The notes under the pieces are model-generated. The model was not told where the DNA came from. It saw only the letters and a program-made list of their open reading frames with translations, and did no database searches. From assembly GCA_021413845.1 (NCBI GenBank), contig JAIOPP010000057.1, positions 81,690-145,689 on the forward strand: DNA of 64,000 nucleotides, given 5' to 3'. This DNA comes from Planctomycetia bacterium (lineage in GTDB: Bacteria > Planctomycetota > Planctomycetia > Pirellulales > PNKZ01). Shown piece after piece: positions 8,180 through 58,801 of the stretch (the stretch's first letter is position 1; each line of letters opens with the position of its first letter). Both the position numbers and the translations under genes were made by a program.

Positions 8180-8195
8180 GAGGTTTCGTTCAATC

Positions 8196-9065: not shown

Positions 9066-9081
9066 ACAGACTCAGAACATC

Positions 9082-10461: not shown

Positions 10462-10462
10462 C

Positions 10463-21700: not shown

Positions 21701-21711
21701 AGGCGACGCCC

Positions 21712-23078: not shown

Positions 23079-23146
23079 GTCGAGCCTACCAATTACCGAT
23101 ACATGAGGGGCCGGAGTCGGACGATCGCCGTTCGCCGGTATGAACG

Positions 23147-23977
23147 ATGAGTGTCGCCAAGCTATCGAAGCAACTCAAGCGTGAGCTGAAAGCGAACCCG
23201 CAAAAGGCGGGAATGCTCGGCTTGCTCTGCGCCGTGGCTGCTTACTTTTGGGGCCCGCTCGTCTTCAAGTCGGAAGAAACGAAGAAGCCGGCACCTGCCG
23301 TTGGAGCGGCGCCCGTTGCAGCGACTGCAACGGCGCCTACCGGACCGCAGTCGCCGACTGCCGGTACACCACGAATGGAGTGGCGTGTTTTATCGAGTCG
23401 GTTGCAAGCCGATCCGCTGATGCGGAGCGTGCCGGGCAAGTCGGCGAACGATGAATTGCGAAACCCGTTCGGTGCCGCCGTGAAGAAGAAAGAAGAAACG
23501 AGTGAAGACGACGTGGCCGCCTTGCTCGAAGAAGCCGCAGCTGCGGGACTCTTCGACGAGGAAAAACCCGCTCCGTCGATCAAGATGAGTGCCGCCGCTT
23601 TGAACACCTATCCCTTGACGCTGACGAGTACGTTGGTCGGGCCGAGAGCTCGAACCGCGGTTATCAACGGCAAGGCTTACGTGCAAGGAGCGGCGATCGG
23701 ACAAATCAACGAGGTAGAACTGGTTTTGGAAACGGTCGACCCACGCTCTGCAACGGTCGCTTGGAACGGAGCTCGACGCGAGCTACGCATTCCACGCCCG
23801 GGAGAAAGAGTGGCCGGCGACGACTCCGAAACAAATGACGCGAAAACGAAGGCCACGGAAGAAAACGGCGATTCGTCGAGTGAAACGGAAACGAGCGAAG
23901 ATGTGTTTCGCGCCATCCTTTCGAATTCAGGCGTGAAAGATACCGGCTCGAATCAAGTAGTGAATCCGACGCAGTAG
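23147..23977 (+). CDS. PilP/GspC-slot protein (membrane-anchored, unknown function)
   Basis: TM (GMLGLLCAVAAYFWGPLVF). C-proximal beta segment LTLTSTLVGPRARTAVINGKAYVQGAAIG...VLETVDPRSATVAWNG resembles the PilP/GspC secretin-binding HR domain. Acidic tail. Confidence 0.45.
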   Translation: MSVAKLSKQLKRELKANPQKAGMLGLLCAVAAYFWGPLVFKSEETKKPAPAVGAAPVAATATAPTGPQSPTAGTPRMEWRVLSSRLQADPLMRSVPGKSANDELRNPFGAAVKKKEETSEDDVAALLEEAAAAGLFDEEKPAPSIKMSAAALNTYPLTLTSTLVGPRARTAVINGKAYVQGAAIGQINEVELVLETVDPRSATVAWNGARRELRIPRPGERVAGDDSETNDAKTKATEENGDSSSETETSEDVFRAILSNSGVKDTGSNQVVNPTQ

Positions 23978-24018
23978 CGTCGGCATTTTCGAAGCGACAG
24001 CAACGTCAAGGAAGACGT

Positions 24019-26472: not shown

Positions 26473-28228
26473 TCGCTTCGTACGAACCTTTGCCTGCGGT
26501 GCCGTGGCGCTTGTCGTCGGCGGCTGCGCGGTCGGCGGCGTGCCGCTTTTTAAGAAGTCGGAGAAGACCGAAGAGGCGCTTCCCGACGTGCATCCGATTC
26601 GCAAAGAGCGGGCATCGTTGGCAGCGAAGAAGTTCGACGTCGAACGGAACGCCGCCGAATATCAAGCCGCCGCGGCTGAATGGCGCCAGGGGAATTTCAA
26701 AGCTTGCCGCGACGGTATCGACAAGATTCTGTATCGCGATCCGGCGCATCGCGACTCTCTCATTCTGCTCGCCGAGTTGGAACTCGAGCATGACCAGCCG
26801 GAACTCGCCGTCGACATCTTACGGCGCGGAATTGCTGCGCACCCGAAAGATGGAGAAATGAGCTACAAGCTCGGCCTTGCGCTGGAATCGGCCGGAGAAA
26901 GTTCGGAAGCGCTTCATCATTTCCACATGGCGGTTCAACTCGCCCCGCAAGAAAAAAAATTCGCCGATGTCTTCAAACATGCGGAAGAGCACGCCAAACA
27001 ATCAGCCGCTCAGGATGGCGAACAAGTCGCCGACGGCAAAGTAGCCCCGGCGACGCCGGACGACAACGAGACTTCCGACAATTCCGGTAGCGAGCCGACG
27101 ATTCAGCTGACCGCCAACCAATCACCGCTGGAGGTCGATCCGCAAAGCTCGACAAAACCATCGTCGAGCGTGTCGTCGCCGATCGAGTTGGCCGTTGCCG
27201 ACTGGGAAGCGGGACGCAAAGAAGCTTGCGCTAAAACCGTCGGCGAAATCCTCGCCCACGATCCCAAGCACATCGATGCGAACATCTTGCAAGTCGAACT
27301 CGATCTCGACGCCGGCCGCAGCGACGAGGCCCGAGCGCGCATCGAACGACTCGCCATTCGCAATCCGCAAAATGCCCAAGTCCGACGAGCCTGCGCGTTA
27401 GCCTATGAAGCGTTGGGCGACGCGGCACGTGCCGCCACATCGTTTGCAGCGGCGGAAACTCTGGAACTCGGCGCGATCGAAGACGCTCCCAGGGTCGCGA
27501 TCTCGGCTCGTGCAAAACGAATCAAGCCGACTTCCATCGAGCCCGCTTCCATCAAAGTGGTATCGATCTCCGAGACCTTACAGCAAGCGACGCCGATGCC
27601 GACGGAATCGTTGCAATCGGAATCATCGACCATCGAACCGCCGAATCTCCTGGCCGCCGACACCCTCGCACCGGCGCTGCCGATCTTGGGTCTGGAAGTA
27701 GATGAGCCCGAAGCGCCCGTGAAAGCGACCGTTTCCACGGTATCAACGGTTCGCAACTCGGTCGTCGATCGGTTAACCAACACCGGTGCGGTGCCGCGCC
27801 GGAGCGCTCAGCAATTACTCGACAAGGGAGAAGTATTTCTTAAGGCCGGACGCTTCGACGACGCCCAACGAGAACTCTCCGCGGCGATTTCCGCGAATTC
27901 TTGCGTAGTTAAAACCGCATCGGCCGCGGCCCTAGCACCGTTAAGATACGAACAATCGGCGCTCGCGCTCGATCTTGCGCGGGAGGGTGTTAAGAAATTC
28001 CCCGATTCTGCGGGTCTACACCGGATTGAGGGGACCGCGGCGCTCCGCTTGGGGCGGCACCTGGAGGCGGAGGCGGCTTTGCGACAATCGTTGTCTTTGG
28101 ACAACTCGCAAGCACTGACCTATTTTTTGCTGGGCTCCGTCTACGACCGCCTGGGAAACCAAGAGGCGGCGGACCGGCATTTACGCCAAGCGGCGCGACT
28201 TGATCGTCGATACGCTGTGCGAAAATAG
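26456..28228 (+). CDS. TPR-repeat lipoprotein (possible pilotin/PilF-like accessory)
   Basis: Start set at ATG 26456. Lipobox LVVGGC. TPR-like repeats at both ends (AELELEHDQPELAVDILRRGIAAHPKDGEMSYKLGLALESAGESSEALHHFHMAVQLAP; LGSVYDRLGNQEAADRHLRQAARLD). Confidence 0.75.
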   Translation: MKSANNRFVRTFACGAVALVVGGCAVGGVPLFKKSEKTEEALPDVHPIRKERASLAAKKFDVERNAAEYQAAAAEWRQGNFKACRDGIDKILYRDPAHRDSLILLAELELEHDQPELAVDILRRGIAAHPKDGEMSYKLGLALESAGESSEALHHFHMAVQLAPQEKKFADVFKHAEEHAKQSAAQDGEQVADGKVAPATPDDNETSDNSGSEPTIQLTANQSPLEVDPQSSTKPSSSVSSPIELAVADWEAGRKEACAKTVGEILAHDPKHIDANILQVELDLDAGRSDEARARIERLAIRNPQNAQVRRACALAYEALGDAARAATSFAAAETLELGAIEDAPRVAISARAKRIKPTSIEPASIKVVSISETLQQATPMPTESLQSESSTIEPPNLLAADTLAPALPILGLEVDEPEAPVKATVSTVSTVRNSVVDRLTNTGAVPRRSAQQLLDKGEVFLKAGRFDDAQRELSAAISANSCVVKTASAAALAPLRYEQSALALDLAREGVKKFPDSAGLHRIEGTAALRLGRHLEAEAALRQSLSLDNSQALTYFLLGSVYDRLGNQEAADRHLRQAARLDRRYAVRK

Positions 28229-28369
28229 TCGCGACGGAGATTCCCTGCCGAACTCGAAGCGCTTGCTTCCGAAGCTGGGCGATGAACCCGAGGGGTTGAT
28301 CGCTTAAGACTTGGGAACGGAGCGAAACGAGCGGCGGTTTCCAGGGAACCTTCACTACCGTCGTCGACT

Positions 28370-29842
28370 ATGAATAAGAATCGCATCTCGCCGTATGCTT
28401 GGCTTATCGCGTGCTTTACGCTGATTGCATGCCTGACCGTGGCAATGGCATGCACGCTCAGGAATTCGCAAGCAGGCTTGCTCCTCTCGATGATCGCAGT
28501 CATCGCCGCGGCGGCATCGGGCGGCATCTGCATCTGGACGATTCGGCGCATCTGTCGCGAGCAAGCGATCGCCCGCCGCTATCTGGAACTTCTCGTCCAC
28601 AGCGACGATCCGGCTCTGGCCTCGATCATTAATCTGGAAGCGCTGCCGGCCGTCGATGAACATTCGACCTGGATGCGGCCGTTGACGCAGATTCGCGACT
28701 ATCTCGCCTCGTTTCACGAACGCCAAGCCGGTTGGGATGCAACTCGCTCGGCGTTGGAAGTCCGTCTACAACGGACCACGGCGCAGGCCGAACTCATGTC
28801 GACCGTCCTGGCGAATATCGGCGAGCCAGTGTTCGCGATGAACGCCTACGAGGAAATCGAACTCGCCAACGAGCATGCGAAGAAGCTCCTGCATTTATCG
28901 GACGGCGATGAGAAGCGCCCCCTCTCGAAGATCCTGCCGTGCGGCAAGCTCACCTCGATGGTGAACGACGTGCGTCGTCGCAACGTGCCGACGCAACGCT
29001 GCGACGATTTCGAGCTCGACGATGCCGATGGAAACAAACGCTGGTATCGCGCGACCGCCTCGAACTTGCTGGCCGATGTCACGGCAAGCGAACAAGGCTC
29101 GGGCGTCGTCGTATTGCTGCGAGACATCAGCGTGCAGCGAGGCATGCAGCAACAGCACGCCGAGTTCGTTTCGGCCGCCAGCCATGAAATGAAAACACCG
29201 CTCGCCGGCATCAAGGCTTACGTCGAACTCCTTGCCGACGGCGATGCCGAAGACGAAAGCTCGCGCGAAGAATTTCTCGGCGTCATCAACAACCAAGCCG
29301 ATCGCCTGCAACGCTTGATCGAAAACTTGCTGAACATCGCCAGAATCGAAGCAGGGGTCGTGAAGGTCAGCAAGCAAAGCCGGGGAGTGAACGAGATCCT
29401 GAACGAAGCGATCGGCGTCGTACAACCCTCGGCCGATGCAAAGCATATTACGCTGGTCTCCGACCTCAGCCCGTTATATCTCGGAGCGCTCGTCGATCGA
29501 GACATGCTCATGCAAGCGGTAATTAACTTGCTGTCGAACGCCGTGAAGTACACGCCGTGCAAAGGTCGCGTAACGCTCCGCAGCCGACTCGCCGACCAAG
29601 AGATCCATATCGAAGTCGAAGATACCGGCGTCGGCCTGAACGAAGAAGATTGTGTGAAGGTGTTCGATAAGTTCTATCGGGTCGACAAAGACAAAAACAT
29701 GGCCGCAGGGACGGGGCTCGGTCTGCCGCTCGCACGCCATATCGTCGAAGACGTCCATAGCGGGCATCTTACCGTTCGCAGCAAGGTCGGCGTGGGAAGC
29801 ACGTTCAGCATCGCGATTCCGAATGTGGGACGAAGCGTTTAG
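28370..29842 (+). CDS. Sensor histidine kinase (2 TM, PAS-like, HisKA, HATPase_c)
   Basis: H-box SHEMKTPLAGI, N-box LLSNAVKYT, G-boxes EDTGVGL and GTGLGLPL. Confidence 0.9.
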   Translation: MNKNRISPYAWLIACFTLIACLTVAMACTLRNSQAGLLLSMIAVIAAAASGGICIWTIRRICREQAIARRYLELLVHSDDPALASIINLEALPAVDEHSTWMRPLTQIRDYLASFHERQAGWDATRSALEVRLQRTTAQAELMSTVLANIGEPVFAMNAYEEIELANEHAKKLLHLSDGDEKRPLSKILPCGKLTSMVNDVRRRNVPTQRCDDFELDDADGNKRWYRATASNLLADVTASEQGSGVVVLLRDISVQRGMQQQHAEFVSAASHEMKTPLAGIKAYVELLADGDAEDESSREEFLGVINNQADRLQRLIENLLNIARIEAGVVKVSKQSRGVNEILNEAIGVVQPSADAKHITLVSDLSPLYLGALVDRDMLMQAVINLLSNAVKYTPCKGRVTLRSRLADQEIHIEVEDTGVGLNEEDCVKVFDKFYRVDKDKNMAAGTGLGLPLARHIVEDVHSGHLTVRSKVGVGSTFSIAIPNVGRSV

Positions 29843-29881
29843 TTTCCGTTTGCCGAAGCGATCTTCAAGAGGAGATAAGTC

Positions 29882-30262
29882 ATGAGCAGACACGTTTTAC
29901 TTTGCGACGACGAGATCGCGATTATTCGCGCAGCGGAAATCAAACTCACACGTGCCGGCTTTCGCGTCACCTGCTGCTCCGACGGCCAAGAGGCGTTCGA
30001 GACGATTCAACGAGACAAGCCCGACTTGCTGATCTCGGATTGCCAAATGCCTCGCATGGGAGGGCTGGAGCTTATTCGCCGACTGCGAGCAGACGAAGCG
30101 ACGTGCGACTTGCCGATCATGATGCTCACGGGCAAGGGCTACGAATTACCGCGTGAAGAATTGCAGACGAAGTACGGCGTGATCGAAATCATCGCAAAGC
30201 CGTTCAGCCCACGCGACGTATTGAAAATCGTCGAGAACCTTTTCGTTGCGAGCTCGACATGA
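29882..30262 (+). CDS. Single-domain response regulator (CheY-like receiver)
   Basis: LLCDDE ... PDLLISDCQMPRMGGLELIRRLR ... MLTG ... KPF. No output domain. Confidence 0.9.
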   Translation: MSRHVLLCDDEIAIIRAAEIKLTRAGFRVTCCSDGQEAFETIQRDKPDLLISDCQMPRMGGLELIRRLRADEATCDLPIMMLTGKGYELPREELQTKYGVIEIIAKPFSPRDVLKIVENLFVASST

Positions 30263-30585
30263 ACCTTACGACGGAAATTTTCGGCGCTTGCATGGTCGTT
30301 CACGCGCCCCAAGACCTGGGACGCGAGCAAGCCGAACGATTTCAGAACTTCCTGCACTCGCTCGAGCGAATTCAGATCATTCTCGACATCGACGACGTCG
30401 AGCAAATCGACAGCTCCGGGCTCACTGCACTCGTCGAGACGCAGGAGCATCTTCGTACGCTCGGCGGCGACTTGAAGATTGCGACGGACAGCGCCGTGAA
30501 TCGGAAGATATTGGAAATCACGCGTATCGACCGGCAATTGGAAGTCTTCGAGAGCGTGATCGACGCAGTGAAGAGCTACCGCTAA
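30259..30585 (+). CDS. STAS-domain protein (anti-sigma-factor antagonist, SpoIIAA-like)
   Basis: 108 aa. ILDIDDVEQIDSSGLTALV carries the conserved DSSG phospho-serine motif. ATGA overlap with the receiver gene. Confidence 0.85.
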   Translation: MNLTTEIFGACMVVHAPQDLGREQAERFQNFLHSLERIQIILDIDDVEQIDSSGLTALVETQEHLRTLGGDLKIATDSAVNRKILEITRIDRQLEVFESVIDAVKSYR

Positions 30586-30652
30586 CCCCCGATATCGTTC
30601 AGACGCGCCTCGCAACCACGTTCGCACGCTCCACGCTCGCACGGCATAACCT

Positions 30653-32404
30653 ATGAGTTCTTCTCTTCATCCCGGTGCCGCTCCTGTCAAGCTCGGCGAC
30701 TTGCTGCTGCGCCACGGGTATCTGACCGAAGACGGGCTGCGCGCAGCCCTCGATCAGCAGAAGAAGGATGGGCGAGGAAAGTTGCTCGGCGAAATCCTCG
30801 TCGATATCTCGGCTTGCTCGGAAGATCAGATCGCCGAATGCATCGCGGCGGAATACGGAGTGCCGTTTGCGAAGCTCGAGCTTCGACTTTGCGATCAGAA
30901 GATCGTGGAAGTGTTGCCTCGCGAATTCATCGAAAACAACTTGGTGATGCCGCTGTTCGTCGTGCGGAACATCCTCACGCTCGCGCTCTCCGAACCGTCG
31001 AACTTGTTCTTGATTGAAGAAGTCGAGAAGCTGACCGGCTTGCGAGTGCAGACCGTCGTGGCGACGGCGAAAGACATTCGCCGAATGATTACGTCGCTGC
31101 CGAACTCGAAGGTGTTCGTCATCGACGACATCATCGAAGAATCCCAGTCGGGCGACGTCACGCTGATCGAAGACGCCGTCGAAGATATCAGCGATATGGC
31201 CGAAGTGGCCGGTCAATCGCCGGTCATTCGGCTCGTGAACTACGTGATCTACAACGCGGTGAGGGAAGGTGCCAGCGATATTCATATCGAGCCGGCCGAA
31301 AAGTGTGTGCGCGTGCGCTACCGGATCGACGGCCGACTGTATAAGTCGCTCGAAGTGCCGGTGACGCTGCTCAGCGCGCTCACGAGTCGCATCAAAATCA
31401 TGGCGGGGCTCGACATCAGCGAACGTCGGCTTCCGCAAGACGGTCGGATCCACGTCATGCTCGACGGTCGAAAGATCGACTTGCGTTGCAGTACGTTTCC
31501 GATGAATCGAGGCGAAAAGACGGTAATTCGCGTGCTCGATACGCGCAGCGTGTCGCTCGTGCTCGAAGACCTCGGCTTCTCGGAAGACATTCTCTCAGGC
31601 CTGACGCAATTGATCAAAGCGCCGAACGGCATCGGCCTCGTAACCGGCCCGACCGGCAGCGGAAAATCGACGACGCTCTACGCGATGCTGAACAACATCA
31701 GCTCGATGGAGAACAACGTCTGCACGGTCGAAGACCCAATCGAATACAACTTGCCGCTGATCAATCAATTTCAGATTCAAGAGCGCGTCGGGCTGACGTT
31801 CTCGAAGGCCTTGCGTACGCTGTTGCGGCAAGACCCGGATGTGATCATGGTCGGTGAAGTGCGCGACGAGGAAACCGCGCGAACCGCAATTCAAGCCGCC
31901 CTAACGGGCCACTTGGTGTTCAGCACGCTGCATACGAACGATGCCTGCTCGTCGATCACACGGCTCATCAACATGGGGGTCGAATCGTATTTGATCGGTG
32001 CGGCATTAAACATGGTGCTGGCTCAACGGCTGCTCCGGAGAATTTGTCCGAAATGCAAAGCCGCGTACGAGCCGCCTCGCACCATGCGCAAAGCGATCGA
32101 AAAGATGGGCTTCGAGATCGACGAATTTTACAAAGGGGTCGGCTGCAAGAACTGCCGCAACACCGGTTACAGCGGCCGTATCGGCGTGCATGAGTTGCTC
32201 GTGGTCGACGACGAGATTCGCGACATCGTCGTGACGAACCCCACGGTCGCGGCCGTGCAAGCCGCCGCCAACCGCAAGGGCATGGTCACGCTCAAGCAAG
32301 ACGGATTCCGCAAGGTGCGCGAAGGAATTACCACGATCGAAGAGGTGTTGCACATCGCCGGCGATATTCGCGACGCCGGAGAAATCATGAGCGGCACGAC
32401 GTAA
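30653..32404 (+). CDS. Type II/IV secretion ATPase (PilB/GspE family) with an N-terminal T2SSE_N/MshEN-like domain
   Basis: Walker A GPTGSGKST, Asp box, Walker B DPDVIMVGEVRD, His box LTGHLVFSTLHTND, tetracysteine CPKC...CKNC. Confidence 0.95.
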   Translation: MSSSLHPGAAPVKLGDLLLRHGYLTEDGLRAALDQQKKDGRGKLLGEILVDISACSEDQIAECIAAEYGVPFAKLELRLCDQKIVEVLPREFIENNLVMPLFVVRNILTLALSEPSNLFLIEEVEKLTGLRVQTVVATAKDIRRMITSLPNSKVFVIDDIIEESQSGDVTLIEDAVEDISDMAEVAGQSPVIRLVNYVIYNAVREGASDIHIEPAEKCVRVRYRIDGRLYKSLEVPVTLLSALTSRIKIMAGLDISERRLPQDGRIHVMLDGRKIDLRCSTFPMNRGEKTVIRVLDTRSVSLVLEDLGFSEDILSGLTQLIKAPNGIGLVTGPTGSGKSTTLYAMLNNISSMENNVCTVEDPIEYNLPLINQFQIQERVGLTFSKALRTLLRQDPDVIMVGEVRDEETARTAIQAALTGHLVFSTLHTNDACSSITRLINMGVESYLIGAALNMVLAQRLLRRICPKCKAAYEPPRTMRKAIEKMGFEIDEFYKGVGCKNCRNTGYSGRIGVHELLVVDDEIRDIVVTNPTVAAVQAAANRKGMVTLKQDGFRKVREGITTIEEVLHIAGDIRDAGEIMSGTT

Positions 32405-32455
32405 TCATCGCGGGGCGTGTGAAGATTTTCAGAGTGCTGGTTTCGGAGATGGCTC

Positions 32456-33652
32456 GTGTCGGCTGCAACATTTGAATACCGCGTTCGCGATGCCCTCGGC
32501 AAAGAGCACGAAGGGACCGTCGACGCGCAGAATCAAGAAGACGCCGTGCAGATTTTGCGACGCGACGGTTTTCAAGTGATCGAGATCGAGGAAGGTGGCG
32601 GCGGAGGTATCCTCGCGCCGGGCATCAAGCGCACCGACATCATCTATCTCACGTGCCAACTCGCGATCATGGTCGACACCGGCATCACGCTATCGACCGC
32701 ACTGCAAGGAATTCTCGAGCAAGAGAAAAACCTGACGCTGCGTAAAATTCTCGTCGAGATGCGTAAGTCGGTCGAATCCGGCGGTGACTTCTCCGAGGCA
32801 CTCGCGAAGCATCCCAAGTATTTCGACAAGACGTACGTCTCGATGATCAAAGTCGGCGAGGCGACCGGAACGCTGGCCGAAATGCTCGAACGGGTCGCGC
32901 TCTATCTTCGCAAAGAGATGGAGATGCGCAGCAAAGTAAAGTCGGCGATGGCATATCCCGCCATCATGGCGTTCATTGCGATCAGCGTGACGATCTTTTT
33001 GTTGACCTACATCTTGCCGCAGTTCTCGCCGCTGTTCGCGAAGAAGGGAATGAAGCTTCCCGGACCGACGAAGATCAGCATGGCTCTTTCCGACGCGCTA
33101 ATTCACCATTGGTATTGGTGGATCGCCGGGATCGTCGGACTTATCGTCTGCTACGTGTGGGGACGACGCACGCCGCAAGGCCGCAAGATTTGGGACTCGT
33201 TCGTCATCAGTGCGCCGCTCATCGGTAGCGTGACGCGAAAAGTCGTCATCAGCCGGTCGTTGCGAACGCTCGGCACCATGCTCAACAGCGGGCTCTCGAT
33301 GCTCGAGGCACTCAAGCTCACGGCCGAAGTTTCAGGCAATTACTACTACGAACAACTCTGGCTGAAGGTGCTCGACGAAGTAACGCAAGGAAACGAGATC
33401 TGCGAATCGCTTCGGACTAGCAGCCTCTTCCCGCCGATGATCGTGCAAATGATCTCGGCCGGCGAGCAAACGGCGCAACTCGGCCAGGTGCTCGAAAAGG
33501 TGAGCAACTACTACGATCATGAAGTGGAATCGTCGATCAAGACGGCCACCGGCATGATCGAGCCGATTCTCATCAGCGTCATGGGGGTCGTCGTCGGCAC
33601 GATCGGCCTGGCGCTCTTGCTCCCTGTCTTCTCGCTAAGCAAGGCGCCGTAA
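32456..33652 (+). CDS. Type II/IV secretion platform protein (PilC/GspF family)
   Basis: 398 aa. Two T2SSF-type repeats (GITLSTALQGI...; GLSMLEALKLTAEV...), three TM helices, and a C-terminal EPILISVMGVVVGTIGLALLLP. Confidence 0.9.
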   Translation: MSAATFEYRVRDALGKEHEGTVDAQNQEDAVQILRRDGFQVIEIEEGGGGGILAPGIKRTDIIYLTCQLAIMVDTGITLSTALQGILEQEKNLTLRKILVEMRKSVESGGDFSEALAKHPKYFDKTYVSMIKVGEATGTLAEMLERVALYLRKEMEMRSKVKSAMAYPAIMAFIAISVTIFLLTYILPQFSPLFAKKGMKLPGPTKISMALSDALIHHWYWWIAGIVGLIVCYVWGRRTPQGRKIWDSFVISAPLIGSVTRKVVISRSLRTLGTMLNSGLSMLEALKLTAEVSGNYYYEQLWLKVLDEVTQGNEICESLRTSSLFPPMIVQMISAGEQTAQLGQVLEKVSNYYDHEVESSIKTATGMIEPILISVMGVVVGTIGLALLLPVFSLSKAP

Positions 33653-44675: not shown

Positions 44676-45125
44676 ATGAATAAGGCATTCGTTAAAGAGG
44701 CAGAAGGAAATGGGGGGCGTTGTCCTCGCTGCGGAAGCTTGGGGTTAGGTGTGCCCGCAGTTACCCTCGCGGCATTCGTTCAGACTGAAAGGCGACATGA
44801 AATCTCCGAAACAGCCTACTTCTGCGAGTTTCCGCGCTGCGAAGTGATCTATTTCGATGACTTCGAGCGATTCCTCGTCTCAACCGATTTACTGCGCTCG
44901 GTGTGGCCGAAAGACTCCGACGCCCCGCTCTGTGGCTGCTTCGGACTTAGCGCCGACGACGTGGCCGACGACGTCCGCGAAGGGACCGTTGCTCGAGTGA
45001 AAGCCGCTGTTGCCAAAGCGAATTCAGCGAATACGCACTGCCTCACCATGTCGGCCAAAGGGCGAAATTGCGCTGCCGACATCCAGCGTTATTACTTCAA
45101 GCTTCGCTCGCAGTTCGGCTCGTAA
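44676..45125 (+). CDS. Cys-rich metal-binding protein (CopZ N-terminal zinc/Fe-S domain-like; tentative)
   Basis: CPRCGS ... YFCEFPRCEVIYFDD ... LCGCFGLSADDV ... HCLTMSAKGRNCAADI. The Cys spacing recalls the putative iron-sulfur metallochaperone / zf-CopZ family, from memory and not searched. Confidence 0.45.
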   Translation: MNKAFVKEAEGNGGRCPRCGSLGLGVPAVTLAAFVQTERRHEISETAYFCEFPRCEVIYFDDFERFLVSTDLLRSVWPKDSDAPLCGCFGLSADDVADDVREGTVARVKAAVAKANSANTHCLTMSAKGRNCAADIQRYYFKLRSQFGS

Positions 45126-45260
45126 GCCAACCTCCAAGGCGAAAGCAACGATCCCGTTTCGTCAGACGCAAGTCTTACGATAGAATGTGGATAGAGTGCG
45201 TAATGGTCACGTCTTAGTCATCCGTGCCGTTCACACAATCCACTAGGTACCGAGGCGCTT

Positions 45261-45533
45261 ATGTCGCAAGCCATCGTCAATCCGGCCGATGTTCGCCGGT
45301 TTGCCAATAACTTGAAGGTGTTCTGTAGCGAACTCCAATCGCAAACCTCGTTGCTGCGAGCACAAATGGGCAGCCTCGGGCAAACGTGGCGCGACCAGGA
45401 GCACGAAAAGTTCGTGCAGGAATTCGATCAGACGATGCAGGTCGTCGGACGTTTCCTCGAGTCTTCGAGTCAACACATTCCGTTTTTGCTCCGCAAAGCC
45501 GAGCGCGTCGAAGAATATCTCCAACAGCGGTAG
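45261..45533 (+). CDS. WXG100-like small helical protein (W43-R-D45 variant)
   Basis: 90 aa. MSQAIVNPADVRRFANNLKVF...LGQTWRDQEHEKFVQEF... has a WXG100-like N-terminal pattern and a central Trp at the same position as ESAT-6 W43. Predicted helix-turn-helix. GAGG RBS. Confidence 0.6.
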   Translation: MSQAIVNPADVRRFANNLKVFCSELQSQTSLLRAQMGSLGQTWRDQEHEKFVQEFDQTMQVVGRFLESSSQHIPFLLRKAERVEEYLQQR

Positions 45534-45542
45534 ACGCGCAGC

Positions 45543-46175
45543 ATGGATTCACAGGCACGCGTCGGCTCGGTCGACGCCTTTCGAGATTTTCGGGCCGTCT
45601 ATTCCAAGTTCGGCGATGCCGCGCGCAATGCGCTTCTCGCGGCCGAGTTGGAAATTCGTCGCATGCTCGACTGGCTTGAGAAGGATCAAGTCGGCTATTG
45701 GAAAAACGAGATTCGGCGACGCGAAGAAAAGGTCAACGAAGCCCATGGGGCGCTGCATCGTAAACGCATCACCGCCACGTTCGGCAACGTAGCTTCCGAC
45801 TCGGAAGAAATATTGATGCTGCGTCGCGCGCAAGCCAAGCTCGCTGAGGCCCAAGAGAAATTGAAACTCGTCAAGCAGTGGTACATCACGGTCGAGCAAG
45901 AAGTTCAGGAATACCGTGGCCCCGTCGCCCAATTGAATAACCTGCTCGACTCGAGCGTGCCGGCCGCGCTGTCGTCGCTCGATCGGATGACCGACATCAT
46001 CGAGTCGTATCTCGCGATCGCAACGCCGGGCGCGAGCGTCACCGGCCTCTCACTGACCGGCTCGGAAACGACATCGGCGAACCTTTCTACGGGACCGACC
46101 GCGAAAAACGCAGAGACGTCGGCGACCGAAGGCGTCGCTCCGATAGCTCGCGATGCAGGAGCACAAGCACCGTGA
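45543..46175 (+). CDS. Hypothetical all-helical protein (210 aa) in the WXG100/FtsK-like operon
   Basis: 9-nt gap upstream and a GTGA overlap downstream. Coiled-coil-like sequence (EIRRREEKVNEAHGAL, RRAQAKLAEAQEKLKLVKQW). Disordered Thr/Ala-rich tail. Confidence 0.6.
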   Translation: MDSQARVGSVDAFRDFRAVYSKFGDAARNALLAAELEIRRMLDWLEKDQVGYWKNEIRRREEKVNEAHGALHRKRITATFGNVASDSEEILMLRRAQAKLAEAQEKLKLVKQWYITVEQEVQEYRGPVAQLNNLLDSSVPAALSSLDRMTDIIESYLAIATPGASVTGLSLTGSETTSANLSTGPTAKNAETSATEGVAPIARDAGAQAP

Positions 46176-46405
46176 AACAGGGAGATCTTACCCCCGTCGT
46201 CGGATCGCTTCGCTTCGCGATCAAAGACTTACGCGCCAAATGGGACGAGACGAAAGAGATCTGGAGCGACGACGTCGCCCGACGCTTCGAGGAAACGCAT
46301 GTTGCGCCGCTCGACGAGCCGGTCGAAACGGCATTGAAGGCGATCGAGCGGCTCGGGCTGACCCTCGTAAAAGCGTACGACGCTTGCTCGCCCGATCGAC
46401 AATGA
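46172..46405 (+). CDS. Second WXG100-like small helical protein (W31-S-D33)
   Basis: 77 aa. ...TKEIWSDDVARRFEETH... shares W-x-D-x5-F-x-E with the 90-aa protein. The GTG start overlaps the upstream stop. Confidence 0.55.
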   Translation: MKQGDLTPVVGSLRFAIKDLRAKWDETKEIWSDDVARRFEETHVAPLDEPVETALKAIERLGLTLVKAYDACSPDRQ

Positions 46406-46422
46406 CCGAAGCTCGAACCTGA

Positions 46423-49400
46423 ATGAGACAACCTGAGGAATTCATGGCGGAACCCGAACTCGTTCAGCAGCAAAACGCGGTGTTGCGCGATCTCGTCGGC
46501 ATGGTCGAACGTCGCAAGGCTGCCGGCGAAGAAGCCGAAGCACGTTATCAACAACGACTCTCCGAAGCGCGGCTCGCGCACGAAGCAGCGGGAAATCGGG
46601 CTCACGACGAATTCGGGAAGAAGCGGGCAGTCTTGGATCGTGAGTTCGCAGAGGTTCGCGAAGCGGTCAACGGCCGACTCCGGCTCGAATACGAATCATG
46701 CGAACGCGAGTATCACACGTCGACCCGCGACGTTAACGATGCCTACTCGGGAGAAATGCGCTCGGCCAAACACAACCATGAGCAGGCCCGCTGGGAAGGC
46801 AATACGGTCTACGATGCGAAGAAGCATGTCCCTCGACGCGAATTCAAAGAACGTGAGAAGCAGATCAAGCTCAAGTCCGAGCGGATCGCGGAACTCGAAA
46901 CGGCCTTCTTCGAACGACTGATCGAGTTGCGTCGGCCGCTGCCGAGCCGCGTCGTCGACGACGAACGACCGATCGAAGAGATGGATCCGGGAGAACCGCT
47001 GGAAGAACCGGCCAAGCAATGGCAAGAGCACGCTCAAACGGCCGAAGCGCTGTTGGGAAAATTGCGAACGAAGTTCGTACCGTCGCTCTTTCGAGGCATT
47101 GCGCCGTTGTGGGTTGCGGCATTCCCAGCGGCACTGGTAGCCGTGCCGGTAGGGTTTGCCGTCGAGTGGAAGGACCCCTTACCGATCGGGATCGCAGCCG
47201 GATGCGGATTGCTGGCGGGGATCGGCCTTTGCATTTGGTTGTGGAAGCTCGGCAAGAAACAAGTCGTGCAACTGCACGCGGGGTTTCTCAAGACGATGAT
47301 CGCCGTCGAAGAACTTCGGCGCCGCTGGCTCTGCCAAGAATTAAATCGCACCAGGAAAATGCAAGCCGAAATCAAGAAGCGTCACGACGACGATCTGGCG
47401 CAAGCCGACTTCGATTTCAAGACTCGCGAGCAAGTCTCCGTGGAGACTCGCGATCGGAAGCGTGCGGCGTTGGAACAGAAGTATGTGCCGCAACTAGCAC
47501 AGATGCGGGAGTTGCACGAAGGGCATGTCCGCAACGCGCAGGTCAACTTTCCGCAGCGTGCCGCCGATCTGGAAACGGCACGAGAGAAAGCCCTGGTCGC
47601 GGCCGACGACGACTTGCAGCAAGCGAAGAACGACGCCCAGGAACTACTCGATCAAGATTGGCAACGGATTTCCGCGCTCTGGCATACCGGCGTCGAACGC
47701 ATTCGCTCGGAGACCGAAGAGATCGGCCGCGTTTGTCGCGGCTTGTTCCCGACATGGAACGATAAGAGTTGGGACAAATGGGAACCGGGCGAGGGGATCG
47801 CTCCGGTTTTGCAATTCGGTAAGTTCGATGTCACGCTCGATCGTCTTCCGGGCGGAGAGCTACCGGTCGATCGACTCGGCAATCGCAATCCGCCGCGTTA
47901 TACGTTGCCGGCGATGTTGTCGTTTCCCGAACGCTGCTCGATGCTCATCAAGACGAGCGGCTCCGGCCGCGCCGAGGCGGTGCAAACGCTGCAAACCGTG
48001 ATGATGCGATTCCTCACGTCGTTGCCGGCCGGAAAAGTTCGCTTCACGATCATCGATCCCGTCGGGCTCGGACAAAACTTCGCCGGCTTCATGCATCTCG
48101 CCGACTTCGACGAGAAGCTCGTCGGTAGCCGCATCTGGACGGAGCCGCAGTTCATCGAACAGCGACTCGCCGACCTCACTTCGCACATGGCGAACGTGAT
48201 TCAGAAATACTTACGCAACGAATTCGACACCATCGAAGACTACAATCGCCATGCGGGCGAAGTCGCCGAACCGTATCGCATTCTCGTCGTCGCCAACTTT
48301 CCGTTCAACTTTACGGACAATGCCGCGCGGCATTTGATGTCGATCATTTCCAGCGGCGCTCGGTGCGGCGTTTACACGCTGATGAGCGTCGACATGAAGC
48401 AGCGACTCCCGCACGGCTTCAATCTCTCGGATCTCGAGCAAAACGCGGTAAAGCTCGTCTGGAAAGACCAACGCTTCGTCTGCAAAGACGGCGACTGGGA
48501 ACATCTTCCGCTGCTGCTCGATGCGCCTCCGTCGCAAGACCGGTTCACGCAACTGTTGCAACGGGTCGGCGAACGTGCCAAAGCCGGCAGCCGCGTCGAG
48601 GTGCCGTTCGAATTCATCGCCCCACGCGACAACGATTGGTGGTCGAAGCAAAGCGGTTCGGAGATCGATGTCCCTCTCGGCCGTGCCGGAGCGACGAAGC
48701 GCCAACACTTGCAACTCGGCCACGGCACATCGCAACACGTCCTCATCGCCGGTAAGACGGGCTCCGGTAAGTCGACGATGATGCATGCGCTCATTACGAA
48801 CGTAGCGCTCTATTATAGCCCGCTCGAAGTCGAGCTTTACCTGATCGACTTCAAGAAAGGGGTCGAGTTCAAAACTTATGCGACGCATGATCTGCCGCAT
48901 GCCCGCGTCGTCGCGATCGAGAGCGAGCGCGAGTTCGGCCTGAGCGTACTGCAACGACTCGATGTCGAACTCAAGCTGCGCGGCGATCTGTTTCGCGATC
49001 TGAACGTGCAAGATGTGAAATCCTACCGTGAAGCGACCGGGAAGCATCTGCCGCGCATGCTATTGATCATCGATGAATTCCAAGAGTTTTTCATCGAAGA
49101 CGACAAGATCGCTCAAGAAACGTCGTTGCTGCTCGATCGCTTGGTGCGGCAAGGTCGTGCGTTCGGCGTGCATGTGCATCTCGGCACGCAAACGCTCGGC
49201 GGAGCCTATAGCCTCGCCCGCACGACGCTCGGCCAAATGGCGATCCGCATCGCGCTGCAATGCAGCGAAGCCGACTCGCACTTGATTTTGAGCGAAGACA
49301 ATCCGGCGGCCAGACTTCTCACGCGTCCCGGCGAAGCGATCTACAACGACGCCAACGGGCGCGTCGAAGGGAACCATCTGTTTCAAGTCGTTTGGCTGAC

Positions 49401-50397
49401 GGATGACAAACGAGAAGATTACCTCAAACGGATCCGCGCGCTTGCCGAACAGCGCAACGTGCTTCCGGCAACGCCGCAGATCGTGTTCGAAGGAAATGTG
49501 CCGGCGAATATCGAGAAAAACCATCTACTCACGGCCGCGCTCGATGCGCCTCGTTGGGCCGAGCAACTCACTGCGGCCCACGCTTGGCTCGGCGAAGCGA
49601 TCGCGATTAAAGATCCGACGATGATCACGTTCCGCCGACAAGGGGGCAGCAACGCACTTATCTTGGGTCAGCAAGGCGAAGCGGCTTTGGCGATGGAAGT
49701 CGTGGCGCTTACGAGCCTCGCGGCGCAGCACTCGGCCGATACTCAGCGCGGGGCTTCGTTCTACGTGCTCGACGGTTCGCCGCCGGATGCGATGCACGCC
49801 GGCTACTGGCAACGAGCAAGCGCGACCTTTCCGCATCGCTGCCAAGTCGGCGGCTTGCGCGATACCGGCCGGCTGGTCGGTGAGATTTCCCAAGAACTCA
49901 CGAAGCGCCAGGCCGATGGAGCGGTCGGCGTCGGCGAAATCTACCTCGTCGTCCACGATCTCCAGCGCTTCCGCGATCTGCGTAAAGCGGAAGATGATTT
50001 CGGCTTCGGTCGCGGCGAAGAGAAACCGAATCCCGGCAAGCAGCTTGCCAATATTCTCCGTGAAGGGCCGTCGCTCGGGATCCACACGATCATTTGGTGC
50101 GACTCGCTGAACAACTTCCAACGGACCTTCGATCGGGCCGCGATGCGCGAGTTCGAAGTCCGCATTCTGTTCCAAATGAGCCAAGCCGATTCCGCCAACC
50201 TCATCGACTCTCCCGCAGCCGGCCGGCTCGGGCCGAACCGGGCGTTGCTCTACAGCGAAGAGCAAGGGAGGCTCGAGAAGTTCCGGCCGTACAACGTGCC
50301 CGACGACGAATGGCTGAAGACCACCGGAGCGCGACTGCTCGCGAAGCGTGACGAAGCACCGGCCGGCGCCGCTCCGGCAGATGCTGCAACTACTTAG
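46423..50397 (+). CDS. FtsK/SpoIIIE-family membrane ATPase with three P-loop domains (EssC/EccC-like)
   Basis: 1324 aa. ~225-aa coiled-coil N-region and two TM helices (aa ~226-247 and 253-274). Domain 1 is degenerate (IKTSGSGRAE). Domain 2 is canonical (Walker A GKTGSGKST at 48751-48777, Walker B LLIIDEF at ~49060, GRAFGVHVHLGTQ, RIALQCSEADS). Domain 3 is degenerate (ILGQQGEAAL, LVVHDLQRF). An alternative start is ATG 46444, preceded by GAGGA. Confidence 0.9.
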   Translation: MRQPEEFMAEPELVQQQNAVLRDLVGMVERRKAAGEEAEARYQQRLSEARLAHEAAGNRAHDEFGKKRAVLDREFAEVREAVNGRLRLEYESCEREYHTSTRDVNDAYSGEMRSAKHNHEQARWEGNTVYDAKKHVPRREFKEREKQIKLKSERIAELETAFFERLIELRRPLPSRVVDDERPIEEMDPGEPLEEPAKQWQEHAQTAEALLGKLRTKFVPSLFRGIAPLWVAAFPAALVAVPVGFAVEWKDPLPIGIAAGCGLLAGIGLCIWLWKLGKKQVVQLHAGFLKTMIAVEELRRRWLCQELNRTRKMQAEIKKRHDDDLAQADFDFKTREQVSVETRDRKRAALEQKYVPQLAQMRELHEGHVRNAQVNFPQRAADLETAREKALVAADDDLQQAKNDAQELLDQDWQRISALWHTGVERIRSETEEIGRVCRGLFPTWNDKSWDKWEPGEGIAPVLQFGKFDVTLDRLPGGELPVDRLGNRNPPRYTLPAMLSFPERCSMLIKTSGSGRAEAVQTLQTVMMRFLTSLPAGKVRFTIIDPVGLGQNFAGFMHLADFDEKLVGSRIWTEPQFIEQRLADLTSHMANVIQKYLRNEFDTIEDYNRHAGEVAEPYRILVVANFPFNFTDNAARHLMSIISSGARCGVYTLMSVDMKQRLPHGFNLSDLEQNAVKLVWKDQRFVCKDGDWEHLPLLLDAPPSQDRFTQLLQRVGERAKAGSRVEVPFEFIAPRDNDWWSKQSGSEIDVPLGRAGATKRQHLQLGHGTSQHVLIAGKTGSGKSTMMHALITNVALYYSPLEVELYLIDFKKGVEFKTYATHDLPHARVVAIESEREFGLSVLQRLDVELKLRGDLFRDLNVQDVKSYREATGKHLPRMLLIIDEFQEFFIEDDKIAQETSLLLDRLVRQGRAFGVHVHLGTQTLGGAYSLARTTLGQMAIRIALQCSEADSHLILSEDNPAARLLTRPGEAIYNDANGRVEGNHLFQVVWLTDDKREDYLKRIRALAEQRNVLPATPQIVFEGNVPANIEKNHLLTAALDAPRWAEQLTAAHAWLGEAIAIKDPTMITFRRQGGSNALILGQQGEAALAMEVVALTSLAAQHSADTQRGASFYVLDGSPPDAMHAGYWQRASATFPHRCQVGGLRDTGRLVGEISQELTKRQADGAVGVGEIYLVVHDLQRFRDLRKAEDDFGFGRGEEKPNPGKQLANILREGPSLGIHTIIWCDSLNNFQRTFDRAAMREFEVRILFQMSQADSANLIDSPAAGRLGPNRALLYSEEQGRLEKFRPYNVPDDEWLKTTGARLLAKRDEAPAGAAPADAATT

Positions 50398-57586: not shown

Positions 57587-58801
57587 CTACTTCCCTTTTT
57601 TCTCGGAGGAATGCTCTGTAGCGCGCTCCGCAGTTTCGGAAGTCAACCCATTGAAGGTCTTGATAAAGTCCGCAAGCGGCATGGTGAACCGGCCCCCTTT
57701 TGTGGGATAGCCGTTCTCTAGGCCGGGCGTTCCTTGGGGCTCGAAATGATTGCACCACGGGTTCCACACCTCGACGGTTTGCGACGCGTGATCGTAATCC
57801 AACACGGCTAACACATGGTCGCTCGGAATGCCGGCGGGCAAGTGCTTCGGCGATAGCGTGCCGGTCGTAGTGATGTGCTTCGCGCGCTGCGCCGTAGTCA
57901 GAATCTCCGCGACTTCCTTCATCAAATGTGCGACCTCGCTCTTCGTCGGCGGCTCTTCCGGATTTTTTCGAAACAAGGTGAGCTTCGCCCGATGGCCGGT
58001 GAGAATGGGTATGACGTCGCGCGAATGTCCTCCCCGACTCAATACGTCGAGCGACAATTCATCGGGCCGACTTCGCTTGTGTGATGCAGCCCAACGGCGG
58101 CTGAAGGCTTGCTCCAGAATGTTCAGCCAGAGCCCTTGATCGCCGGCAGTCGAACCGAGCAGGACTTGCGCGTCGGTGAGATGACGGGCTTCGACCGTCT
58201 CGCCGTCGCCGAACTCCACGCGATAGGAACCATCTGCCGAAAGTGAAACGATACTCCGAATATGGTCGGGCCGGCGATGCACCGCAGAGCCGATCGTCGC
58301 CAGGAAGAAGCAGTCGCCCAAGCGACCTTGCTTAAACCCTTCGAGACTCGGCGCACCGGACGAGAATGCGGTCGTCGGTCGTTCGCGGACATGCTCGATA
58401 AAGCCGGCATACCAAATCCGAAAATTAGGGACGGCCGTTTCTTTATCGCGACGTCCCTCAGCGTGCTCCGCCGTTTTGCGAAGCAGGAAATCAAGCGTCA
58501 AAGGAGGCCAAGTCGGCGTTCCTGCCGCATTCTTAACCCGGCGCTGGTACAGATGAATCGCCGCCAAGGCGGCAGCATCGGCACCGCGAGTCGTCAGATC
58601 GATCAGCGCGGGATTGATCTCGTCGGCTTCTAGCTTGTCGTTCCGATTACGATCCCAGTGCGCGAATTTGCTTTGAACCGTTTCATCGAACGTCGGACTA
58701 CCGGATGGCTCGGCGGCAAGTAGCGCAGTCGCCATGAGCATCAACGATGCCGTTAAAGCTTGCGTCGTTGCAATCGCGCTCCGCTTGATTACCGTCGACA
58801 T
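57587..58801 (-). CDS. Calpain-like cysteine protease (peptidase C2-like) with an EF-hand-like loop, secreted
   Basis: Signal peptide (LTASLMLMATALLAA). EF-hand-like loop DRNRNDKLEADE. Catalytic blocks QGRLGDCFFLATIGSA (Cys), SDHVLAVLDYD (His) and VEVWNPW (Asn). Confidence 0.7.
   Translation of the reverse strand: MSTVIKRSAIATTQALTASLMLMATALLAAEPSGSPTFDETVQSKFAHWDRNRNDKLEADEINPALIDLTTRGADAAALAAIHLYQRRVKNAAGTPTWPPLTLDFLLRKTAEHAEGRRDKETAVPNFRIWYAGFIEHVRERPTTAFSSGAPSLEGFKQGRLGDCFFLATIGSAVHRRPDHIRSIVSLSADGSYRVEFGDGETVEARHLTDAQVLLGSTAGDQGLWLNILEQAFSRRWAASHKRSRPDELSLDVLSRGGHSRDVIPILTGHRAKLTLFRKNPEEPPTKSEVAHLMKEVAEILTTAQRAKHITTTGTLSPKHLPAGIPSDHVLAVLDYDHASQTVEVWNPWCNHFEPQGTPGLENGYPTKGGRFTMPLADFIKTFNGLTSETAERATEHSSEKKGK

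Follow-up and report, generated by a model that had tools for sequence, protein, structure and literature searches.

A phylum-wide four-gene module of the Planctomycetota that couples WXG100-like proteins with an EssC/EccC-like ATPase

The 64,000-nucleotide (nt) stretch of a Planctomycetia bacterium genome analyzed here (contig JAIOPP010000057.1; hereafter the window, to whose numbering coordinates refer unless another locus is named) carries at 45261-50397 of its + strand four tightly packed, co-directional genes, which we name g1 to g4. In that order, they code for a WXG100 protein, a predicted long helical hairpin protein, a divergent WXG100-like protein and a membrane-anchored ATPase of the FtsK/SpoIIIE family (Table 1). 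Our analysis indicates that they constitute a real, uncharacterized and phylum-wide member of a variant, among the type VII secretion systems (T7SSs), that has been noted before; a secretory function is what we infer for it. On balance, we lean towards viewing the module as the planctomycete form of a divergent, stripped-down T7SS-like exporter encoded by one operon of four genes.

Organization of the module

A first-pass annotation of the window had described the four genes together with a 9-nt gap between g1 and g2 and a GTGA in which the stop of g2 overlaps the start of g3. All of these stand at the same places in the open reading frame (ORF) list and in the raw sequence, and the planctomycete host that the annotation suggested was borne out by the database matches. 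Its length of 1324 amino acids (aa) for g4 corresponds to the ORF from the first ATG, but the true start is probably the second ATG, at 46444, giving 1317 aa, because the database copy is 1317 aa long, the alignments with homologues begin at residue 8 and a GAGGAA lies just upstream. The GC content of the module, 0.55-0.60, is the same as that of its flanks. A search of the protein collection gave back g2 and g4 of the window but not the exact sequence of g3, for which the best match is 95% identical. Being small, overlapping and opened by a GTG start, g3 may have escaped the gene caller used by the source. About 75 nt upstream of g1, at 45159-45186, there is a site resembling a promoter, but the count is no higher than chance would give (1 found against 1.7 expected), and it was not used.

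How g1 and g4 relate to the core of T7SSs

The homology of g1 and g4 to the core of T7SSs, as claimed in the first-pass annotation, is established at the level of sequence profiles. On the side of g1, the protein scores 32 bits against the Pfam WXG100 model (PF06013), above the cutoff of 27.3, and 26 bits against NCBIfam TIGR03930, below the cutoff of 44.85. A profile of its family, built from 55 homologues, matches the structure of Helicobacter pylori HP0062 over its full length (E 5e-12), followed by the PDB structures of Bacillus anthracis EsxB (E 4e-9), Streptococcus agalactiae SAG1039 (E 3e-5) and Staphylococcus aureus EsxA (E 4e-4). HP0062 (PDB 3FX7 and 2GTS), the best solved relative of g1, is a hairpin homodimer from a Gram-negative bacterium whose gene clusters with one for an FtsK/SpoIIIE protein and whose function is not known. 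It has a W-R-D at its bend, and g1 likewise has W43-R-D45 at its predicted hairpin bend, instead of W-x-G. The two outer residues of this triplet, to which the first-pass annotation had drawn attention, are invariant in the 55 homologues, as are E47, F51, F55 and Y86; since HP0062 has its WRD at the same bend, W43-R-D45 is, judging from the alignments, a subfamily signature and no accident.

The g1 homologues are 46-90% identical and, in nearly all cases, 90 aa long, with a nearly fixed C-terminus, EEYLQQR. This end does not form the YxxxD/E export motif: in the closing E-E-Y86-L-Q-Q-R90 the position +4 after the invariant Tyr86 is Arg or the end of the protein. The family is Cys-free in 53 of 56 cases. 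No signal peptide and no hydrophobic segment was found in g1, g2 or g3, so any export of these proteins would need a dedicated route.

On the side of the ATPase, g4 matches Pfam FtsK_SpoIIIE at 1.5e-33. Among the NCBIfam models, those for EssC (110 bits), EccCa (97) and EccCb (87) rank ahead of that for FtsK, against which g4 scores 24 bits where the equivalog cutoff is 1566. The best matches in PDB are to Thermomonospora curvata EccC, Bacillus subtilis YukB and EccC5 (99, 75 and 73 bits; 1e-27 to about 1e-19), as against 33-35 bits (1e-8 to 1e-7) for coupling proteins and FtsK, the latter over the P-loop core only. By these scores, the active domain of g4 groups with EssC, EccC and YukB and not with FtsK or the coupling proteins; the first-pass assignment accordingly stands, no clustering with chromosomal FtsK or conjugative translocases having been seen.

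Ahead of its tandem FtsK/SpoIIIE domains, g4 bears two transmembrane (TM) helices (Kyte-Doolittle hydropathy windows above 2.1), which make it a membrane-bound ATPase closest to EssC/EccC; two hydrophobic segments are also the modal count in the ATPase family (47 of 72 members). Given where this hairpin falls (Table 1), the N-terminal region of about 220 aa and the ATPase domains are predicted to be cytoplasmic, as in EssC and EccC. The three FtsK-like domains that follow, here termed Da, Db and Dc, are homologous by internal hhalign comparisons, with 92% probability (E 5.6e-7) for Da against Dc and 97% (E 1.5e-10) for Dc against Db. The middle one, Db, has an intact Walker A (GKTGSGKST; aa 777-785; 48751-48777) and Walker B (LLIIDEFQE; 49060-49086); in alignments it falls on D1 in YukB and EccC5, and on both D1 and D2 in T. 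curvata EccC. Da has in their place a pseudo-Walker A, KTSGSGRAEA, and a pseudo-Walker B, YRILVVANFP, which are without the catalytic Lys or acidic residue; against PDB it gives a weak match to the Geobacillus EssC fragment 5fv0 (E 0.4). Dc carries the pseudo-Walker A ILGQQGEAAL; its profile has no match among PDB sequences, and the alignment to the NCBIfam EccCb model reaches aa 1281, within this domain. The first-pass description of a two-TM ATPase with three FtsK/SpoIIIE P-loop domains is right about the TM helices and the number of domains, but just one of the P-loops, that of the middle domain, is intact. The same holds for the family, 70 of whose 72 members have exactly one Walker A. The Pfam and NCBIfam scans yielded no match on g4 to the gamma domain, which reads KOPS.

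The companion proteins g3 and g2

Taken alone, g3 has no Pfam match. A profile of its family (64 members), however, matches S. aureus EsxA (2vs0) with E 7.6e-5, aligning its W-x-D on the W-x-G; further, hhalign relates the g3 family to the g1 family at E 1e-4, and a g3 hidden Markov model finds g1 among the 371 ORFs of the window at E 2e-4. The two residues of its W31-S-D33 that correspond to the motif, W31 and D33, are invariant in the 64 homologues, so that in g1 and g3 alike the motif is W-x-D and not W-x-G, with the Asp invariant in both families. WXG100 is also the commonest Pfam match of individual g3 members (16 of 64, all sub-threshold). On this profile evidence, g3 is a WXG100-like protein, with a similarity that is weaker than that of g1 and sub-threshold. 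The profile check proposed with the first-pass annotation has therefore gone in favor of both small proteins, g1 being over the Pfam cutoff and the g3 family matching EsxA. The longer pattern W-x-D-x5-F-x-E that the annotation had read in the two holds in part: W-x-D-x5-F occurs in g1 and g3, and F-x-E in g3 and in the consensus of the g1 family, but g1 of the window itself reads F51-V-Q-E. A Cys near the C-terminus of g3 (Cys72, 46385-46387) is kept in 56 of the 64 homologues, three to six residues from the end; a pairing of this residue with the loop Cys of g2 was considered and rejected, as there was no covariation.

AlphaFold2 models g2 as an antiparallel alpha-hairpin (helices 2-78 and 87-159; mean predicted local distance difference test, pLDDT, 81, exceeding 90 in the hairpin), after which comes a disordered tail (aa 164-210) rich in Ala, Pro, Ser and Thr. 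The protein has no Pfam, NCBIfam or PDB sequence match. A Foldseek search of PDB returned generic antiparallel coiled coils only (Smc arms, EmrA, PI3K iSH2), none of them at E <=0.001, and is uninformative; the matches of its profile to MHC class I among PDB sequences are spurious. An exhaustive HMMER search gathered relatives in 1961 clusters, from the 150 best-scoring of which we read the architecture. In these the hairpin stands at the N-terminus and the architecture varies little, with two forms: a short one of 150-260 aa with an Ala/Pro/Ser/Thr-rich tail, and a long one of about 350 aa with an Imm33-like domain, which, among the fetched loci, is found in the Phycisphaerae clade. None of 62 g2 members matches LXG (PF04740), WXG100 or any other WXG model; there is no toxin domain in the Planctomycetia g2 and no immunity gene between g2 and g3, such that g2 does not have the makings of an LXG-type polymorphic toxin. 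A conserved C-terminal Pro, considered at one stage, was rejected: just 20 of the 62 members end in Pro, as befits a Pro-rich tail.

Two sets of g2 relatives deserve mention in their own right. In the Phycisphaerae (L009 at 8548-9612, L034, L042, L066, L074 and L075), the C-terminal Imm33-like domain (PF24719) is over the cutoff in five of the six proteins; this fold is known from immunity proteins of polymorphic toxins, and the Phycisphaerae modules are without a toxin gene. The 674-aa protein P0216 joins an N-terminal hairpin of the g2 type to a type I phosphodiesterase/nucleotide pyrophosphatase of the alkaline-phosphatase superfamily; it may be a cargo fusion, or else an artefact of gene calling. 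We counted it for the export reading, the fused superfamily being one that usually acts outside the cytoplasm.

Distribution and inheritance in the Planctomycetota

A scan for the ATPase with one genome per species found a relative of g4 in at least 585 genomes. Among the 80 best of these relatives, which are 42-75% identical over their full length, all records that carry a name are from the Planctomycetota, and the orders and classes among these 80 are Pirellulales, Gemmatales, Isosphaerales, Planctomycetales, Phycisphaerae and Tepidisphaerales. When the module was profiled across the phylum, as had been proposed with the first-pass annotation, the order g1-g2-g3-g4 proved to be kept in about 53 of the 61 loci that are informative for gene order (those with at least 1.4 kb upstream of the ATPase), and the modal spacings across loci, a gap of 9 nt and an overlap of 4 nt, are those of the window. 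The recurrence of this order, together with the translationally coupled spacing, suggests that the four genes work as a unit. The stand-alone WXG protein g1 was found in 55 of the fetched loci. In an all-against-all clustering of every ORF in 83 loci, no other gene family lies beside the ATPase in more than about 10; as no fifth family recurs, the module consists of exactly four conserved genes and is minimal.

The genes flanking the module in the window (among them those for amidohydrolases, a two-component system, a CopZ-like protein and a POT transporter) are related neither to T7SSs nor to mobile elements, and those flanking its planctomycete relatives are ordinary, variable chromosomal genes; embedding in mobile-element genes, for which the planctomycete relatives were inspected, was not found. 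In a tree of the ATPase, built by neighbor-joining only and with taxon labels taken from record titles, Phycisphaerae, Gemmatales, Isosphaerales and Thermoguttaceae each group separately. As this tree follows taxonomy, it argues for a mainly vertical inheritance of the planctomycete ATPase. A set of 2.9 million viral contigs held 1 relative, which is distant, low in GC, without g1 nearby and irrelevant here. Hence, for the planctomycete clade, to which this statement is confined, neither tree nor flanks nor viral contigs speak for mobility.

One small, tight clade of ATPases (L028, L037, L039, L041 and L070) has no g1-g3 upstream, and two of its members, L037 and L070, share transketolase and GNAT genes in that position. 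L037, labelled 'Candidatus Kuenenia stuttgartiensis', is nearly the same as L070, a contig of a metagenome-assembled genome of Planctomyces sp. SH-PL62, and its label or binning is suspect; it does not establish a presence in Brocadiia.

Relatives outside the phylum

Beyond the Planctomycetota, tblastn recovered co-linear three-domain ATPases on plasmids of Rhodococcus, Deinococcus, Caballeronia and Helicobacter, and a protein search added a relative from Saccharomonospora. All four plasmid clusters have a g1-type W-x-D WXG100 protein (81, 55, 42 and 27 bits), and the conserved [DE]-x-Y-L C-terminus is present in the g1-type proteins of distant relatives too.

One of these is on the plasmid pNHP190012_1 of Helicobacter sp. 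NHP19-012 (L086, 4758-9160), with, in order, an 89-aa WXG100 protein, a 340-aa toxin, a SUKH-1 protein, a 77-aa protein and an 823-aa ATPase. The protein in the g2 slot combines a coiled-coil N-terminus with a WHH/colicin-DNase toxin domain and is followed by the SUKH immunity gene, both over the Pfam cutoffs; it is the only g2-slot protein to show the polymorphic-toxin pattern. Such a toxin and immunity pair is a hallmark of exported toxins, and it thereby links the wider family to protein export. Zhang et al. (2012) reported toxin/immunity genes in T7SS-like neighborhoods only from Firmicutes, Actinobacteria and Chloroflexi; the pair in L086 lies within a T7SS-like neighborhood of an epsilonproteobacterium.

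The other contexts are diverse. On the Caballeronia sp. SBC2 plasmid pSBC2-5 (L085, 3657-16307), a WXG100 protein, a 436-aa coiled-coil protein, two small proteins and a soluble 927-aa ATPase form a core flanked by genes for two VWA proteins, a DUF1887 CARF protein, a PP2C phosphatase, a Ser/Thr kinase and an AAA protein, a context that looks like an intracellular signaling or conflict system. In Deinococcus, a separate coiled-coil protein with a C-terminal TM helix is encoded directly upstream of the ATPase. The Rhodococcus plasmid (L087, 5495-10925) has a 1322-aa ATPase with a TerD-like N-terminus within a Ter (tellurite-resistance-type) cluster, with small genes downstream that include the one for the g1-type WXG100 protein. 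On the Saccharomonospora cyanea chromosome (L083, 7474-11124), a soluble 920-aa ATPase adjoins helical proteins of 86, 81 and 122 aa without family, which gave no meaningful profile match as counterparts of g1, g2 or g3. On the strength of these gene neighborhoods, the wider ATPase family is tied to toxin and conflict biology; in contrast, the planctomycete clade has a membrane anchor, has no toxin and behaves like a part of the core genome.

Comparison with known systems

The variant to which the module belongs was recorded by Zhang et al. (2012) in footnote 6 of their Table 1, as a solo WXG protein with a distinct YueA-like ATPase of three FtsK domains, only the middle one being active, with planctomycetes named. 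They class this pairing as a version of the T7SS and call such systems mobile. Both of the defining features recur here, namely the three FtsK-like domains with an active middle one and the stand-alone WXG partner; the planctomycete module is a member of a variant already in print and not a new kind of system, and its novelty was set too high in the first-pass annotation. The footnote is silent on g2 and g3, on the TM anchor and on the four-gene operon, and where it speaks of mobility, the planctomycete module instead tracks taxonomy among ordinary chromosomal genes. In the literature searched, we found no paper going beyond this footnote for planctomycetes, and in the literature found we did not meet g2, g3, the planctomycete-specific TM anchor, the strict four-gene operon or the vertical pattern. 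Elsewhere, a review of 2023 mentions a small number of WXG100 sequences in Gram-negatives that lie beside an FtsK/SpoIIIE protein and are functionally unconfirmed, and the survey of T7SS subtypes a-j by Garrett et al. (2024) covers Actinomycetota and Bacillota only.

Compared with the canonical systems, i.e., T7SSa (ESX: EccB, C, D, E, MycP and EsxA/B), T7SSb (EssC/YukB, EsaA, EssA, EssB, EsaB and EsxA) and subtypes c-j of Garrett et al. (2024), the module has the same core, a WXG100 protein and a two-TM, multi-domain FtsK/SpoIIIE ATPase whose active domain is closest to EssC and to EccC D1. The differences are several. Where EssC/EccC have a DUF domain and three nucleotide-binding domains D1-D3, g4 has one DUF-like and two ATPase-like domains, and of its three P-loop-like domains one has Walker A and B, leaving a single nucleotide site. 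It lacks FHA domains and has a coiled-coil N-terminus instead. The module is without accessory membrane or ubiquitin-like components, its small proteins are W-x-D rather than W-x-G proteins devoid of the YxxxD/E motif, and its host is a diderm. The Helicobacter-type ATPase of pNHP190012_1, with the toxin and SUKH genes in its g2 slot, differs from g4 in having no TM segment.

In T7SSb, the long N-terminal helical domain of LXG toxins bundles with small WXG100-like partners (Lap) into a composite export signal. The likeness of g1, g2 and g3 to these complexes is one of functional analogy only, their shapes being fitting; unlike the LXG toxins, g2 is devoid of LXG matches and, in Planctomycetia, of a toxin domain. 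FtsK, SpoIIIE and the conjugative coupling ATPases share the P-loop fold and PF01580 with g4; they score much lower, however, are single motors with a gamma domain and four TM helices, and have no link to WXG100 genes.

A putative translocon and the alternatives to it

In the exporter reading that we favor on balance, g4, anchored in the cytoplasmic membrane by its two-helix hairpin, would, like EssC and EccC, presumably form a hexamer. The three small proteins g1, g2 and g3 might assemble in the cytoplasm into a helical-bundle complex, of which the invariant C-terminal tail of g1 (…RKAERIEEYLQQR) could dock on the degenerate Dc, by analogy only with EsxB, which docks on D3 of EccC. ATP hydrolysis in Db would then drive the folded helical complex across; the 12 TM helices of the hexamer would line the pore, and the bundle would arrive in the periplasm. 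A more far-reaching form of this, which we hold to be less likely than not, is a phylum-wide, vertically inherited minimal translocon, in which a single membrane protein, the hexameric g4 with one active site per protomer, would be both motor and channel and the g1-g2-g3 bundle would be exported to the unusually large periplasm as a housekeeping product and not a weapon.

A number of observations weigh against such an export. The structurally characterized T7SSs all need accessory membrane partners; as the first-pass annotation had remarked of the window, no other ESX or Ess component is to be seen there, the Pfam scans of its 64 kb being negative for EccB/D/E, MycP, EsaA, EssA, EssB and EsaB/YukD, none of which is conserved in the 83 loci either. 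No outer-membrane component is linked to the module. The g4 protein has one intact ATPase site only, exposes a periplasmic loop of merely 7 residues and, for all its preference for the T7SS models of NCBIfam, stays far under their cutoffs (778 bits for EssC, 509 for EccCa and 347 for EccCb). Outside the phylum, and apart from the TerD-fused protein of Rhodococcus, the ATPases (those of Caballeronia, Helicobacter, Deinococcus and Saccharomonospora) have no TM segment, which implies that the ancestral activity of the family need not be membrane translocation. The g3 monomer, contrary to the hairpin that the first-pass annotation expected, is modeled by AlphaFold2 as one continuous helix (residues 7-72; pLDDT 89). 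Further, g1 is conserved above the motor (median identity 56% against 45% for g4) and the Planctomycetia g2 has no cargo domain, because of which the two look more like parts of a machine than like effectors. Finally, in the literature found, secretion is documented for no member, either by experiment or by proteomics.

The most serious alternative, to which we give a rather low probability, is a membrane-associated housekeeping machine without export, in which the ATPase would assemble, remodel or recycle a g1-g2-g3 scaffold at the cytoplasmic face. Envelope or membrane organization, budding and division would be possible roles, Planctomycetota being without much of the canonical division machinery. 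The phylum-wide and largely vertical occurrence of the module accords with this, as do the stronger constraint on g1 than on its ATPase, with a length fixed at 90 aa, and a Planctomycetia g2 free of toxin, immunity and cargo domains; so does the fact that neither a channel nor an outer-membrane partner is among the conserved neighbors, and the soluble ATPases of the non-planctomycete relatives cannot alone be translocons. It is, however, at odds with every characterized system in which a WXG100 protein is paired with an EssC/EccC-type ATPase, all of which export protein, no scaffold or division role being known for WXG100 proteins; the conserved TM hairpin with its EssC-like topology, moreover, fits a translocon, and the Helicobacter relative has its toxin and immunity pair.

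That same pair raises a second alternative, namely a mobile cassette of inter-bacterial conflict or defense which delivers or controls a toxin, with g2 as the effector. We regard this as unlikely. The relatives would suit it well: Zhang et al. (2012) term these systems mobile, the Rhodococcus, Deinococcus, Caballeronia and Helicobacter relatives are on plasmids, the CARF, VWA, PP2C and kinase genes around the Caballeronia core are typical of conflict systems, and an Imm33-like domain is present on the Phycisphaerae g2 in addition to the Helicobacter WHH toxin and SUKH immunity gene. The planctomycete clade itself does not bear this out, with an ATPase tree that follows taxonomy, ordinary and variable flanks, a GC content that is that of the surroundings and a lone distant relative in the viral contigs. 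PADLOC, for its part, yields generic FtsK/HerA P-loop matches only (SspH, mad8) and no defense-system assignment, and the Planctomycetia g2 has neither a toxin domain nor an immunity gene after it, quite apart from the near-uniform architecture of the best 150 g2 relatives. The conflict cassette fits the relatives and not the planctomycete clade.

That g4 is a DNA translocase, of the FtsK-like segregation or the conjugative coupling kind, with the small genes as unrelated passengers, is very improbable: the FtsK_SpoIIIE Pfam domain and the name 'DNA segregation ATPase FtsK/SpoIIIE' that sources give to homologues suggest it, but the EssC/EccC models score four times higher than the far-below-cutoff FtsK model, PDB matches to FtsK and coupling proteins reach 1e-7 to 1e-8 where those to EccC and YukB reach 1e-20 to 1e-27, the scans find no gamma domain, three tandem domains with one active are unlike FtsK, the synteny with WXG100 genes is strict, and neither the window nor the 83 loci have relaxase or mating-pair genes nearby.

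Other features of the window

Coordinates of the module, of the domains of its ATPase and of one neighboring cluster are collected in Table 1. That cluster, at 4608-12664 of the + strand, is a type I-like export cluster with a SecA paralogue inside it, which is odd. A type IV pilus or type II secretion-like cluster occupies 20636-33652 of the + strand, with PilM, a secretin (24019-26472), a TPR protein, a histidine kinase, a T2SSE ATPase and a T2SSF platform protein. In the relative L001, tad/Flp pilus genes and a secretin lie just downstream of the module; linkage to a secretin is not conserved across the 83 loci.

Directly upstream of g1, at 44676-45125 (+ strand), is the CopZ-like gene, whose product has a zinc-binding and a putative 2Fe-2S domain (zf_CopZ 1.6e-12; NCBIfam CopZ_Nterm_CC 8.6e-17, under the cutoff); it is not conserved beside the module in the 83 loci. 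At 57587-58801 on the - strand, 7 kb downstream, a calpain-family (Peptidase_C2) homologue with a signal-peptide-like N-terminus is encoded. Calpains are uncommon in bacteria, a report of 2015 having them from a single planctomycete, and WXG100-calpain fusions exist in other phyla. As a partner of the module this protein was rejected, given its signal-peptide-like N-terminus and its lack of similarity to g1, g2 and g3.

Table 1. Features of the module, of the ATPase g4 and of the type I-like export cluster, in window coordinates
Feature	Coordinates	Strand	Extent	Description
g1	45261-45533	+	90 aa	WXG100-family protein, HP0062 (W-x-D) subtype
g2	45543-46175	+	210 aa	Alpha-hairpin and disordered tail; no known family
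g3	46172-46405	+	77 aa, GTG start	Divergent WXG100-like helical protein
g4	46423-50397	+	1324 aa from first ATG	EssC/EccC/YueA-like FtsK/SpoIIIE-family ATPase
g4 N-terminal region	46423-47067	+	aa 1-215	Charged, coiled-coil-like, weakly conserved; no Pfam/NCBIfam match
g4 TM hairpin	47098-47244	+	TM1 aa 226-247; TM2 aa 255-274	Two TM helices joined by the 7-residue loop EWKDPLP
g4 domain Da	47755-48657	+	aa 445-745	Degenerate FtsK-like, position of EccC DUF domain; highly conserved
g4 domain Db	48655-49512	+	aa 745-1030	Sole catalytically intact FtsK/SpoIIIE ATPase domain by motifs
g4 domain Dc	49510-50394	+	aa 1030-1324	Degenerate FtsK-like, position of EccC D3
TolC-like outer-membrane efflux protein	4608-6392	+		
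Short SecA-like ATPase	6389-8179	+	596 aa	SecA_DEAD, preprotein cross-linking and P-loop domains
Two HlyD-type membrane-fusion proteins	8196-9065, 8962-10461	+		
733-aa protein	10463-12664	+	733 aa	No Pfam match

Concluding remarks

T7SSs are treated as machines of the Actinomycetota and Bacillota, and their structural models all include lineage-specific membrane partners. Against this backdrop stands a four-gene version, strictly conserved across a diderm phylum, with no membrane protein other than the ATPase, in which one catalytic site alone is live. Its interest rests on this phylum-wide conservation, on its true minimality and on the test that it offers of the WXG100 and EssC-like core alone in a diderm. 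If the module does export protein, it would define the minimal working core of a T7SS and offer a simple model of the passage of folded helical bundles through a membrane; it would also identify a dedicated planctomycete export route along with three abundant, conserved helical proteins. If the minimal-translocon reading is true, neither EccB/D/E nor EsaA/EssA/EssB would be indispensable to a working T7SS core, which could moreover operate in a diderm whose outer membrane is conventional. If, on the other hand, there is no export, the pairing of WXG100 proteins with an EssC-like ATPase would have a second, non-secretory function, and the annotation of such gene pairs in Gram-negative genomes would have to change. 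Genetic work is feasible in some planctomycetes, such that either outcome can be put to the test.

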